A stretch of 52,175 nt of DNA, taken from Elusimicrobiaceae bacterium. GTDB taxonomy: Bacteria > Elusimicrobiota > Elusimicrobia > Elusimicrobiales > Elusimicrobiaceae. A program made the position numbers and the translations under genes. This document shows, piece by piece, positions 35,322-41,528 of the stretch; position 1 is the stretch's first letter; every line of letters starts with the position of its first letter. The notes under the pieces are model-generated. The model worked only from the letters and a program-made list of their open reading frames with translations, did no database searches and was not told the origin of the DNA. The stretch is taken from assembly GCA_031549165.1 (NCBI GenBank), contig JAVBQE010000031.1, positions 1-52,175 of the forward strand, written 5' to 3'.

Positions 35322-35381
35322 CCAAAAGGCCTATGCAAAACATAGGCCTTTTATCTGTTATTCTTTAGGTCTTAAGGCCCT
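35318..35381 (+). promoter_or_regulatory. Pair of 16-bp quasi-palindromic boxes upstream of the poly-C gene; the first also forms a terminator-like hairpin
   Basis: ATGACCAAAAGGCCTA (35318-35333), TAGGTCTTAAGGCCCT (35366-35381); hairpin AAAAGGCCTATG-n5-CATAGGCCTTTT. Confidence 0.6.
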
Positions 35382-35415
35382 GGTTTTGCATTGCAAGTTC
35401 TAATAATATAAGAGT

Positions 35416-36937
35416 ATGAAAGCTAAACTCACACTCTTAATAAGCCTCTTCTTATTCTGCACCTCCGCTAGGAGCGCGGGAAATTTTGGTTTTGTGCCCC
35501 CCCCCCCCCCCCACTAAGTTAGAAGTTCTAAAACAATTTGACAGTTTTAAAATACAGATTAAAGGAACAAGCACCATAACCTCCTGGGCAGAGCAAGTAC
35601 AGACGGGGAATATCAATATTCCCACCCTTATTGCCATACTTGAAGATACTCATTATGTAAACTCCGACAATGTCTACACCGAGGAGTCCTGCCTGTCAGA
35701 CTACGAGGGCCCGCTGGAATGCGAACTGGGACTGCTTACTACAATACTTCCGCACTTAACTTATACTTCTGCCGAAGGGCAGATGTTAACAGGTTTCTTT
35801 TTGAGAAAACTTACGCATCCTTATAATAGAAGAGATAAAAACTATTCTCTTTATTACCGCTACTCATTAATTGCATCCTCCATAATACCCAGCAACACCG
35901 CCGGGCGGGACATTTTAGACGGCCTTATACGCGTAGTAAAAGGCGAGTTTGGCAGCAAGCCGGAAACCCACGTGTGGAGTGCGCGCACATTGGCAAATGT
36001 GCCCTATTTCAGCCCCGCGCAACAGCGCAAAGTTATAAAAGAACTCTCCTCCATTATCCAGAATTACAGCTACACGCTTAAAGATACTTATGACGACAAA
36101 AATGCCCTCGGCTACTTTACTAAAAACGAACATATAGCCCAAAAAGTATTCGCCGCTAAAGTTAATTTTTTTGCCAAAAATGCTGAGCACAGCATAATGC
36201 GTTCTATGCTTACCAGCGCGGTCTTTGTAGAAGAGGGCCGCGCGTTTTATTTACAGAACGACCTGCCCGGCATGGACGGCAAAAACTTTGCTTCCACCGA
36301 CAACGGCAACCGCCACAATATTTCCTTCAACCTTATAAAAACGCTTTTCAAAGCCTACGTCTTAAGCGGACATCCGGAGGAGATGAATAACTTCATCATC
36401 AAATACGGCAGGCTCAATACTTCTAAAACAGGCTTTGACAATTACCTCCTATTCGCCATGTATGGCATGGACGAAGCATTCAGCTATAACGACTCCAAAC
36501 ACATAGACGGCTGGCTGGACCAGTATAATATTTTCCTTTCGCAAATAGCCTCAAACATCTGGGCCACAGCGCCGGCGGCTATAGTGTTAACCACCATACA
36601 GGGCGGCGCGGAAGTAAGCGCGGAGTGGATAGGCATAACAAAACTTTTTAAATACGGCGGCAAATTCTTTGGCGCGGTAGGTAAAGCGGGCATGGGCGCG
36701 TTCCTGCGTTTCATGCCAAAGCAGTATTTTACTACCGGAGCAGTACTTGCCCTCGGTAAAGCCGCGTCCAAAAAACTAATAATGACCGCGCCTAAAAAAG
36801 CATTAAACAAAGCGGTGCGTATTTTAATGCTAGCCTCGCCTCTTGCATTAACCGGAGACGAAAATAACAGCATAACACAAACAGAAGCAAGAAACATAAC
36901 TATGAACAAAGAAGAAGTAAAAAAACTAATGGAGTAA
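35416..36937 (+). pseudogene. Secreted hypothetical protein frameshifted at a C16 tract (phase-OFF allele or sequencing error)
   Basis: ATG 35416 gives the signal peptide MKAKLTLLISLFLFCTSARSA...FVPPPPPH*; removing one C joins it to the long ORF (..PPPPPTKLEVLK..). Confidence 0.8.
35497..35512 (+). repeat. Homopolymeric C16 tract
   Basis: Direct count of 16 C; the longest G/C run I saw in the window. Confidence 0.95.
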
Positions 36938-36941
36938 GAAT

Positions 36942-38192
36942 ATGAAAAAAATAATAGCAAGCGCAGTAATAGCAGCAATGCTGCTTACAAGCAATACCAC
37001 CCTGCTCGCCGCCACCGTGACAGAGCAGCCCAGAACGTTGGCCGAATACAGCCAGCGCTTTGTGGAAGAAACAAAAAATTATAATCTGCAAAAGAAAGAT
37101 GCGGTTACCCTTTCCGTAGTATTTGCCGCGATAGCCACAGCTGCAATGGTAAGCTATGCTGCAAAAAAAGAATGGCAGCAAAGCAGGCGAGCTTACAACG
37201 GCAATTCTGCTGGTGCTGTTGCCGAATCAAAGTATATAAATGGCCTTGCCTCACCGCAGGAATTTAAATTTAATCAGAACATATCTGGCGGCAATATGTC
37301 GTTTATAACAGACGGGCAGGAGGTTTCCCAGAATATCAAGCCCATCACTTCCGGCCAAGCTCCGTCTAACATAATTAATATTGAAGAAAAAACTGCATCT
37401 ACAAAAGCTGCTGAGTTTAAAAACATTATGAGTGATGAGGCGACAAATATTACGAAAAATGAGTTAAAAAGTTTTACGCAATTTGAGATGAGTGCTATAT
37501 CTAAGCGTATAGATCACCTGGCAATTGGTCTTGGCTCCTCTGTTAATCCTGAAGCTTATGCCATGCTAAAATTAGATCTTTTTAATTTAGAAAAGCTTAA
37601 AGCGCGCACCCTTTCCTCGGAACACAAAAAAGTGATACAAAACTTTATAGACATATATCTTACGGATATACAATATTTTCTAAAACTGGATTCTGATAAC
37701 CTTGCCTCATATGTTTATACAAAGCAAAATTATTTTAACCATGATAGGTTTGGCCAAAGCAAAGAGTTTATTTCAAAAGAAAGCCATACTATTTTAAAGA
37801 ATACTTTATCCAAGAGATTTTGGATATTTTTAGCTGTATTGGGCACAGCTTCGCTTGTTATGAGCAATGAAACGCAGGCGAAAGTTCAGGCAATTGCTTT
37901 GCAGCCTTCGCTTGCCTTTAACATGAACCCTGAAGATTCAGAACACAGAAAAATCTTTAATGCTATAGACAGTCTTAAGGATCAGCGTCTTAGAGAATCT
38001 TTGGTACAGGCTTTTGAGTACGCGCATGAGATTCACACTCTGCCTTTTGAGCAGAGAGAGGCCAAAGTAAACCAAATTGAAAAAGATTATATTAAGGAAA
38101 GCAAAGAACTAAATTTTGATCAGAACAGACTTAAAGGTATCAAAGACAATGCAAATAAAAAATACACAATAATGAATTCTCAGGCTGAATAG
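36942..38192 (+). CDS. Secreted/membrane hypothetical protein
   Basis: RBS GGAG, signal peptide, two hydrophobic segments, AT-rich core. Confidence 0.85.
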   Translation: MKKIIASAVIAAMLLTSNTTLLAATVTEQPRTLAEYSQRFVEETKNYNLQKKDAVTLSVVFAAIATAAMVSYAAKKEWQQSRRAYNGNSAGAVAESKYINGLASPQEFKFNQNISGGNMSFITDGQEVSQNIKPITSGQAPSNIINIEEKTASTKAAEFKNIMSDEATNITKNELKSFTQFEMSAISKRIDHLAIGLGSSVNPEAYAMLKLDLFNLEKLKARTLSSEHKKVIQNFIDIYLTDIQYFLKLDSDNLASYVYTKQNYFNHDRFGQSKEFISKESHTILKNTLSKRFWIFLAVLGTASLVMSNETQAKVQAIALQPSLAFNMNPEDSEHRKIFNAIDSLKDQRLRESLVQAFEYAHEIHTLPFEQREAKVNQIEKDYIKESKELNFDQNRLKGIKDNANKKYTIMNSQAE

Positions 38193-38200
38193 TACGATAT

Positions 38201-38237
38201 AAAAAACAAGCCCCGCTTTTGGCGGGGATTGTTTTTT
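38201..38237. terminator. Bidirectional intrinsic terminator
   Basis: AAAAAACAAGCCCCGC-TTTTG-GCGGGGATTGTTTTTT. Confidence 0.8.
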
Positions 38238-38245
38238 ATTTGGGG

Positions 38246-39010
38246 TTAGATTCTTACGGTTCTAGTTTGCGTAGGCATTACCAGGCCAGTCTTAGAACTT
38301 ATAAACATGCCGTTGCTGCTGTCTATGGGGGCGATGTACAAAGTGCCGTCTCTTTCCGAAGACAACACGCCTATAAACTTTTTGTCCTTATTATAAACGC
38401 CTGCGCCGGTGGCGGCGGCGGGGAAGTTTAGGCCTTTTTTGGCTACGTAATAGGACTTATCGTAGGTGAATTCCTGCTCAAAAGGCGTCATTCTGCACTC
38501 TACATCATCGTCACACTCAACGAATGTGATGGTGAAAACCTCTTTAACCTTCTCATCCCCGGCGGGCGGAGCGGCAAACTGCACCTTCTCAAAAGGTTTA
38601 ATGCCATTTACGCGCAGGATGCCTATGTCGTGCGCCGCCTTGTCTTTTACGGTACGGGACTCCATAAAAAAATCTGCCTTGGGAAACAGCATAACGCCCA
38701 AACCGGGCTTCTTCAGTTTCTTTGTTTTATTTTTGGACATGTTGGTAAGGTCGTACACTAAAAACATATCGCACTTCATCTGCACGCACCACTGCACGCA
38801 CTGCGCGGCGGTGAGGATATGGTTGTCCGCTATTATGGTGCCGGTGCAGGTAGAAGGCATAGCGCCATCGTAGGAGGCCTCGTTATAAATACCTATCTGT
38901 ACGGAGTTGGGGCTGAAAACTTTTTTGCCAGGCAATGTCTGCGCCGCAGCAAAGATGACGCAGAGGATTAAAAAAATAGAGCATATTGTTGCCGTAAGAA
39001 TTTTATTCAT
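38246..39010 (-). CDS. Secreted trypsin-like (S1) protease homolog, probably inactive
   Basis: CTGTII...ILTAAQCV (His to Gln), HDIGIL (Asp kept), AATGAGVY in place of GDSGGP. Confidence 0.78.
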   Translation of the reverse strand: MNKILTATICSIFLILCVIFAAAQTLPGKKVFSPNSVQIGIYNEASYDGAMPSTCTGTIIADNHILTAAQCVQWCVQMKCDMFLVYDLTNMSKNKTKKLKKPGLGVMLFPKADFFMESRTVKDKAAHDIGILRVNGIKPFEKVQFAAPPAGDEKVKEVFTITFVECDDDVECRMTPFEQEFTYDKSYYVAKKGLNFPAAATGAGVYNKDKKFIGVLSSERDGTLYIAPIDSSNGMFISSKTGLVMPTQTRTVRI

Positions 39011-41069: not shown

Positions 41070-41528
41070 ATGAAAAACAACAGTGCATTCACGCTTATAG
41101 AACTTCTGGTAGTAGTATTAATTATCGGCATATTAGCTGCTATTGCCTTGCCGCAGTACACACAAGCGGTAGAAAAGAGCCGCGCCATGGAAGCCGTAAC
41201 CATACTCAAAGCAATTAACGATGCAGAGGAGCGCTTTTTTTTGGAAAACAATACGCCCCCTACGTCTACAGATGATCTGGATGTATCTATCCCAAGCAAC
41301 ACTACATTTACCTATAGCTGCTTCTTCCCCAGAGGTAACTGCCAGGCAAAAAGAGCAAATACTGATTATAGTATGGAATTTACGGCCTCTTTTGACAGCG
41401 TTTTCCCAGGGCAGCGTAACCGCTGGTGTGTGGCCGCTAATGACAAGGGAAAAAGAATCTGCACTGCTATTGGCGGTAAAGACACTGGGTGGGGCGCGCA
41501 GGGCGGATTTTATTATTACAATTTATAA
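41070..41528 (+). CDS. Type IV pilin-like protein (PilE-like)
   Basis: AFTLIELLVVVLIIGILAAIALPQY; four C-terminal Cys. Confidence 0.93.
   Translation: MKNNSAFTLIELLVVVLIIGILAAIALPQYTQAVEKSRAMEAVTILKAINDAEERFFLENNTPPTSTDDLDVSIPSNTTFTYSCFFPRGNCQAKRANTDYSMEFTASFDSVFPGQRNRWCVAANDKGKRICTAIGGKDTGWGAQGGFYYYNL

Follow-up and report, generated by a model that had tools for sequence, protein, structure and literature searches.

A C16 tract behind the signal peptide of an Elusimicrobiaceae gene as a likely slipped-strand switch in a genome rich in pilin-leader G/C runs

Results

The two-gene unit and its C16 tract

The window, i.e. the whole stretch of DNA that was analysed (52,175 nucleotides from an uncultured gut bacterium of the Elusimicrobiaceae, whose genome is referred to below as the source genome or G000), carries on its forward strand a unit of two genes, here called A and B. 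The following features were assigned.

35324..35352 (+), terminator-like hairpin ending the upstream FGGY-kinase gene (FGGY domains); 5' boundary of the A-B unit
35416..35517 (+), start of gene A and peptide of the C16 state, with a Sec-type signal peptide at about codons 1-18/21; GNFGF-VPP aligns with GQHGFTLPP of homologue P0011
35470..35488 (+), AGGAG and TTG, a possible but improbable start within gene A for a protein lacking the signal peptide, in frame at no tract length but the assembled one
35497..35512 (+), C16, putative frame-setting slipped-strand tract
35513..36937 (+), 474-codon body of gene A, free of interruptions; modelled as an all-alpha, solenoid-like fold against which a short C-terminal helix packs
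36515..36670 (+), helical hairpin of mild hydrophobicity (residues 344-395, counted in the TTG ORF), with the family motif Q-G-x-x-E-V-x-x-E-W at its end
36626..36850 (+), Gly/Ala/Lys-rich cationic amphipathic tail (residues 381-455), net charge +13, helical moment 0.59, of low confidence in the model
36931..38192 (+), gene B, 416 aa, with ATG at 36942 and its own GGAG at 36931-36934; two hydrophobic segments besides a signal peptide; weak similarity to the gene adjoining A in its nearest homologues
38211..38227 (+), GC-rich hairpin resembling a terminator; 3' boundary of the A-B unit

The homopolymer at 35497-35512 was found to be a pure C16 that begins at codon 28 of gene A, and it is the sole G/C run of at least 7 bases within the window. 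The chance expectation of a G/C run of at least 16 bases in the source genome is 1e-4. The only ATG within 35381-35500 lies at 35416; the peptide read from it, MKAKLTLLISLFLFCTSARSAGNFGFVPPPPPH, ends at a TAA stop at 35515-35517, and the product of the C16 state therefore has 33 residues (signal peptide, GNFGFV, five Pro and His). By a simple test of hydrophobicity and charge, the only means by which signal peptides were called in gene A and its homologues alike, this peptide is signal-peptide-like (best 9-residue hydropathy 3.0, charge +2), and the product of the TTG at 35486 is not (0.39). The preliminary description had stated that the ORF track starts at this TTG (483 aa) and that the signal-peptide frame opened at 35416 ends just after the run, and both statements were borne out. 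It had also placed the tract right after the signal peptide; the tract does lie behind it, but starts 6-9 codons past the likely cleavage site, as judged by eye.

When the frame was computed for tract lengths of 8 to 22, lengths of 9, 12, 15, 18 and 21 gave 504-508 codons, and all lengths not divisible by three led to a stop at codons 31-36. A length of 3n joins the ATG 35416 peptide to the 474-codon body, in which no second lesion was found, so the fusion proposed earlier for C15 and C18 was confirmed. Gene A shares with homopolymer phase-variable genes a G/C run of at least 9 in the 5' coding region whose length alone sets the product, and the product is exported according to the predicted signal peptide.

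An AGGAG motif lies 11 nt 5' of TTG 35486. In the C16 state, translation from this TTG might therefore yield a protein that lacks the signal peptide. The tract could then switch location, with a cytoplasmic protein started at the TTG at C16 and an exported one at lengths of 3n. The AGGAG and the 483 open codons fit such a switch, but it is improbable: a TTG initiates weakly and here stands rather far from the AGGAG, a motif that the signal-peptide codons already account for; full-length family members are exported by the heuristic test; and the pilin tracts described below have no such arrangement.

Upstream of ATG 35416, sigma-70 consensus sites were about as frequent as expected (6 versus 5.5), and no promoter of this type was called. 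A TATAAT-like box is seen close before the ATG at 35404-35418 and at the homologous loci L002, L032 and L033, with no clear SD sequence, and the transcripts are possibly leaderless.

Gene B and its relatives

Among the neighbours of gene A homologues, the best four matches to gene B were the genes next to A in L032-L035 (E values of 0.0006-0.055 in a small set). Gene B was also retrieved, at an E value of 0.012 among 122 proteins, by a profile from which it had been left out, the next unrelated protein being at 1.5, and in L036 a similar gene precedes A. No gene-B-like gene was seen within ~1.5 kb of the 23 loci of genus g2 or of the locus in G003, and many g2 homologues of A stand alone at conserved chromosomal sites. 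From this distribution, the A-B pair appears to be old but optional. Gene B had no match in Pfam or NCBIfam and no sequence match in the PDB, and neither a search of 40 relatives nor one by words recovered it. Prediction of a complex of A and B gave a score of 0.00, the partner fold being uncertain. Switching may also affect gene B, as had been suggested; this gene has its own ribosome-binding site (GGAG). RNA run X2 has short contigs that fall on gene B, and on gene A no more than a chance piece of 18 bases; coming from one study at low depth and with possible DNA carry-over, X2 was not taken as evidence of expression or polarity. A gene for a secreted trypsin-like protein (38246-39010, minus strand) converges on the terminator of the unit.

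Gene A belongs to a family of predicted exported proteins

Gene A had been described as an orphan. This did not hold: its profile matched 33 of 144 other family genomes (29 strong and 4 weak matches). Four proteins matched it at 40-42% identity over 93% of the length, and the profile retrieved 40 cluster representatives. The ten homologues that were looked up included Elusimicrobium minutum Emin_0319, a protein of Parelusimicrobium proximum, one of an Elusimicrobiota MAG and one in a record labelled Bacteroidia. Taken with the many pilins described below, these homologues suggest that the window belongs to Elusimicrobiaceae. The body of gene A aligns end to end with the family, and no paralogue of gene A was found in G000.

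At 27 of 29 homologous loci from other genomes, a full frame and, by eye, a signal-peptide-like start were present; one locus starts downstream, in a listing restricted to ATG starts. Among 39 stored homologues, 27 passed the simple signal-peptide test and most of the failures look N-truncated. Where gene A carries the tract, F-x-(L)-P-(P/G) is found in the homologues P0011 (GQHGFTLPPQP), P0012 and P0016. These starts and this alignment indicate that ATG 35416 is the real start and that the run probably expanded from Pro codons in its own lineage. It had been suggested that orthologues be checked for a pure run of CCC-coded Pro of variable length, and no such run was found: none of the 29 loci has a G/C run of at least 8 (one has a C7 near codon 40), nor do L032-L036. 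The tract is absent from the orthologues and is lineage-specific, not part of a core phasome.

Two homologous loci deserve mention. P0010, the closest homologue (47%), is annotated from an internal Met with no signal peptide and labelled Bacteroidia; it may carry a frameshift at the position of the tract or be mis-binned. G020 has a tandem of three paralogues (L002:2974-3140 and L036), the middle one of which is frameshifted near its 5' end with no homopolymer.

Predicted structure of the gene A protein

The AlphaFold2 model of gene A, built with 38 sequences, had a mean pLDDT of 83. It is helical over residues 25-395, of low confidence over 414-462 and ends in a confident last helix. A fold search returned only generic HEAT/ARM-like rows, with a best Z of 9.4 and rmsd of 5.9-7.7 over 211-244 residues, in which the tail was barely covered; no pore-forming or colicin-like fold was among the rows listed. 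Searches of gene A against Pfam, NCBIfam and PDB sequences gave no match. The gene A protein is predicted to be an exported alpha-solenoid with a cationic amphipathic tail.

The earlier reading of a Gly/Ala/Lys-rich amphipathic C-terminus was upheld, as the tail has the joint highest helical moment in the protein and its character is conserved. Most family members carry a cationic Gly/Ala/Lys tail of varying sequence behind the same motif, and two end at the motif. The best 19-residue hydropathy is 1.37, which indicates that the protein has no typical transmembrane anchor. Binding to membranes by the hydrophobic hairpin and the tail is plausible, and the two may also enter the membrane.

Polymorphic toxin carriers have a Gly/Lys-rich helical linker before the toxin, and the gene A family resembles them in an exported conserved N-terminal body, an amphipathic linker and variable C-terminal extensions in some members. 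Extensions of 288-431 residues past the conserved motif were found in 4 of 38 aligned members, most others having ~55-160 residues, and they fall into two or more kinds with no relation to each other. Long members are P0028, P0035, P0038 and P0039 and those at L064-L066; one kind of extension contains a conserved R-F-G-x-H-E...H-I-H. The extension of P0039 has R-G, S-x-S and E motifs which, by eye, we take to be ADP-ribosyltransferase-like. On these grounds, and because the family is patchy (strong matches in 29 of 144 genomes), it could be of the polymorphic-toxin-carrier type, gene A being a cargo-less and possibly membrane-active form. We regard this as rather unlikely. The extensions gave no match in Pfam, NCBIfam or PDB, and a search with that of P0039 returned only itself. 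The model of a long member was poor (pLDDT 51.5) and had no significant fold match; its top Foldseek rows, in which lethal-factor and ADP-ribosylating-toxin entries stand among importins, had an E value of ~0.02 and a TM of 0.09 and were rejected. Gene A itself differs from such carriers in having no match to a delivery or toxin domain and no extension, its neighbour encodes a 416-aa exported protein instead of a small immunity-type protein, and many g2 homologues are found alone, as noted above. The likeliest site of action of the gene A protein is the cell surface, where it would meet other cells, although this functional step is somewhat less probable than not.

G/C runs in the source genome lie mostly in pilin leaders

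A scan of the genome for other long G/C runs in secreted genes had been proposed, and it placed the C16 tract in a wider pattern. G000 (1.66 Mb, 45.5% GC, 86% complete) contains 59 G/C runs of 11-16 bases with a peak at 13-14, and 6 longer ones at contig ends; the expected number of runs of at least 11 is 0.22. The longest A/T run has 10 bases. After runs of at least 9 were merged, 59 loci were obtained, comprising 36 leaders of type IV pilins (called by the motif xF(T/S)LxE), 3 5' ends of secreted genes, 1 intergenic run and 19 otherwise unclassified loci within 120 nt of a contig end. Of the remaining 40 classifiable loci, 39 sit where a gene for a pilin or a secreted protein begins, compared with 9.8% of random positions (counted as falling no more than 100 nt past an ORF start). 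The four non-pilin loci are gene A, two secreted proteins of one family and the intergenic run. At 11 of the 19 edge loci an SD sequence and an ATG lie 22-54 nt upstream, suggesting that assemblies break at gene starts that carry runs; G/C-rich noise is common where contigs stop at a run.

The pilin motif was matched 87 times in G000 (one match is not a pilin), and 37 of the matches have a run of at least 7 upstream. The 36 tract pilins with a run of at least 9 were mixed in state, 13 being in frame; another 14 had one base too many, 3 lacked one base and 6 were left unassigned. In 12 of the 14 pilins that are one base long, the run is C/G14 where 13 would be in frame. Two near-identical leaders on contig C145 have G13 (in frame) and G14 (out of frame). 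Four pilins with short or interrupted C runs are all in frame. The tract pilins share only 41-56% identity with their nearest paralogue, yet their runs are pure, and they are scattered over a weakly resolved tree of 83 rows (a quick version, 51 of 80 forks being open).

The pilin-leader runs sit at codons 5-13 and consist of C on the coding strand in 30 of 36 loci and of G in 6. When 49 clean runs were read as C, ATA preceded 31 of them and T followed 34. The resulting motif ATA-C13/14-TG is found on either strand in pilin leaders, encoding poly-Pro or poly-Gly (e.g. C86:15454, C145:1304, C4:16500 and C6:4769), and even sister paralogues carry runs on opposite strands (a C run in C86 and a G run in C145, support 96). 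The C16 of gene A differs from this motif in its flanks, GTG and ACT, and in its position at codon 28. It likely grew from existing Pro codons and would not have been copied from the pilin motif.

Several further observations were made on these runs. Secreted proteins at C11:4188, C19:14391, C109:7942 and, cut, C29:68 share an N-terminal domain and have variable C-termini; their genes lie near pilin genes, with C12-15 before the hydrophobic core of the signal peptide, and the products are possibly pilus-tip adhesins. The third member of the C11/C19/C109 family falls among the edge loci. The only internal long run outside a gene start, a G15 at C86:17031, adjoins a terminator-like inverted repeat. 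In the window, the type IV pilin gene at 41070-41528 (Pfam N_methyl) has no run.

Domains of MutS, MutL and Rho were present in G000. A mismatch-repair defect as the cause of the long runs was rejected, the MutS and MutL domains being in open frames. DNA inversion as the origin of C-then-G runs at contig ends was discarded in favour of the simpler read-end noise, and a role of the G000 motif as an antisense promoter was dismissed because no TTGAC stands at the matching place.

Runs in related genomes

A C11 run was present in 15 of 60 other family genomes and absent from 45, indicating that heavy use of such runs is patchy. Runs of at least 10 numbered 30 in G076 and 14 in G066. In G076, 8 of 12 examined runs were in pilin leaders. 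In G066, 11 of 12 examined runs were promoter-like spacers, after TTGAC and before a TATTAT- or TATGTT-type box, and 9 of these lie 56-74 nt before a pilin. The poly-G spacers of 10-16 bases at L070-L096 of G066 look like a transcriptional version of the same switch. The single-contig genome G012 has three runs, two in pilin leaders (one in frame, one out) and one, out of frame, in an epimerase-like gene (L022:601); G047 has two pilin leaders with runs. The layout of gene A recurs in G071 (L017:606), where a C12 stands behind the signal peptide of an unrelated secreted protein, in frame. Long G/C runs were also seen near the starts of methyltransferase-like (L011:597, G076) and radical-SAM-like (L019:601, G007) genes; these labels, like that of the epimerase-like gene, rest on motif reading by eye.

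These data bear on the notion that the frame of gene A is incidental, either because the gene is a recent pseudogene or because the runs do something else, such as G-quadruplex-driven recombination between pilin paralogues or spread as a selfish motif. The occurrence of ATA-C13/14-TG on either strand, even in sister paralogues, would suit a copied cassette, but independence of strand is also predicted by slippage. The G066 runs lie in promoter spacers, where length tunes transcription, and the body of gene A has no second lesion and its flanks are not those of the cassette. We therefore consider an incidental frame very improbable.

Tract length in assembled contigs

The evidence on length at C16 consists of assembled contigs from one study, with no second genome of the genus among the genomes searched. 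Run X1, which may be the source sample, has a Logan contig that starts with the same 16 C's and is identical to 35497-35695; none of the Logan contigs of three runs spans the tract. For contig C86, which carries four G/C runs, the Logan contigs list no length difference at any of them; of the 394 pieces, 20 were inspected, one of which bridges a run with at least 31 letters on each side, and its C13 agrees with the assembly.

The depth is ~6-7x, and 3x on the contig that starts at the tract. With such depth, with contigs ending in G/C-rich noise and with 14 of 17 out-of-frame pilins one base long (14 versus 3 short), the switch could be real and the assembled C16 a one-base overcall, gene A being ON in the sampled population. 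This appears unlikely on balance, because a second assembler likewise puts no fewer than 16 C's at this tract and C13 at C86, 13 pilins were called in frame in the same data, and out-of-frame alleles also occur in the single-contig genome G012.

Discussion

The placement of G/C runs at pilin and secreted 5' ends, the mixed frame states of the pilins and the like design in relatives together support reading gene A as a contingency locus. The earlier proposal that gene A is phase variable is thereby strengthened, and the C16 is likely a slipped-strand on/off switch within a pilin-centred phasome. Under this reading, cells would gain or lose one C by slippage at C16; at lengths of 3n the full gene A protein would be exported, and at other lengths a stub of 31-36 residues would be made. 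Across a population, the pilins, three secreted proteins encoded next to pilins and the gene A protein would then be displayed in varying combinations.

More tentatively, the runs may form a switchboard in which about 40 of more than 80 pilin paralogues, adjacent secreted adhesin-like proteins and gene A are each toggled by G/C tracts. It is conceivable, at a similar level of doubt, that a strand-independent ATA-C13-TG module has spread among diverged paralogues, sister lineages using promoter spacers. Equally speculative is the function, which might be to randomise recognition of prey, partner or phage receptor by pili together with carriage of the contact protein of gene A. E. minutum has about 60 pilE genes; dozens of pilin paralogues kept in small genomes would be a library from which a random subset is expressed per cell.

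G/C runs of 9-20 bases slip in replication far above background, and they switch genes such as Neisseria pilC and lgtA; random on/off switching of surface proteins in this way is familiar from pathogens. Neisseria pilC1/pilC2 resemble gene A in that a long, uninterrupted G/C tract lies early in the reading frame of an exported protein and sets it ON or OFF, and in the link to type IV pili. In gene A, however, the tract comes just past the signal peptide and the protein is unrelated and alpha-helical, and whereas pilC1/pilC2 are two pilus-tip genes, the other runs of the source genome are in 36 pilin subunit genes. Genic tracts of G9-20 are given for Neisseria pilC and lgtA, and genic CTTCT repeats of 7-21 for opa, which has up to 12 copies (PMC5953494). 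SSR mutation rates are put at 100-10,000 times basal (PMC11868660), and a further source gives 5-81 genes per strain, with runs mostly of 9-10 (PMC6321876).

G000 is like C. jejuni in being a small genome of a host-associated bacterium with G/C homopolymers at dozens of loci. Its runs differ from those of C. jejuni in being most frequent at 13-14 bases, in usually having C on the coding strand and in targeting one paralogue family. C. jejuni is not known to have MutS and MutL, whose domains are present in the source genome. In Mycoplasma vlp, paralogues of a surface family each have their own repeat switch. This, as in Neisseria opa, yields combinatorial display and resembles the arrangement proposed for the pilins described here. 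Unlike these families, the source genome has mononucleotide runs in prepilin leaders, on either strand and with about three times as many paralogues, and its relatives reach the same end via promoter spacers.

Most likely, then, gene A is a contingency gene of known mechanism; the novelty lies in the phylum, in the protein family and in a phasome centred on dozens of pilin paralogues. No report of this switch in Elusimicrobiota, nor a description of such homopolymers in pilin leaders, was found in the openly accessible literature searched. An uncharacterised, Elusimicrobiaceae-wide exported family would join those surface factors on which selection fluctuates. About half of the tract pilins, and gene A as well, are truncated or given a wrong start by gene callers, and assemblies break at the runs; as a consequence, the surface repertoires of such genomes are under-annotated.
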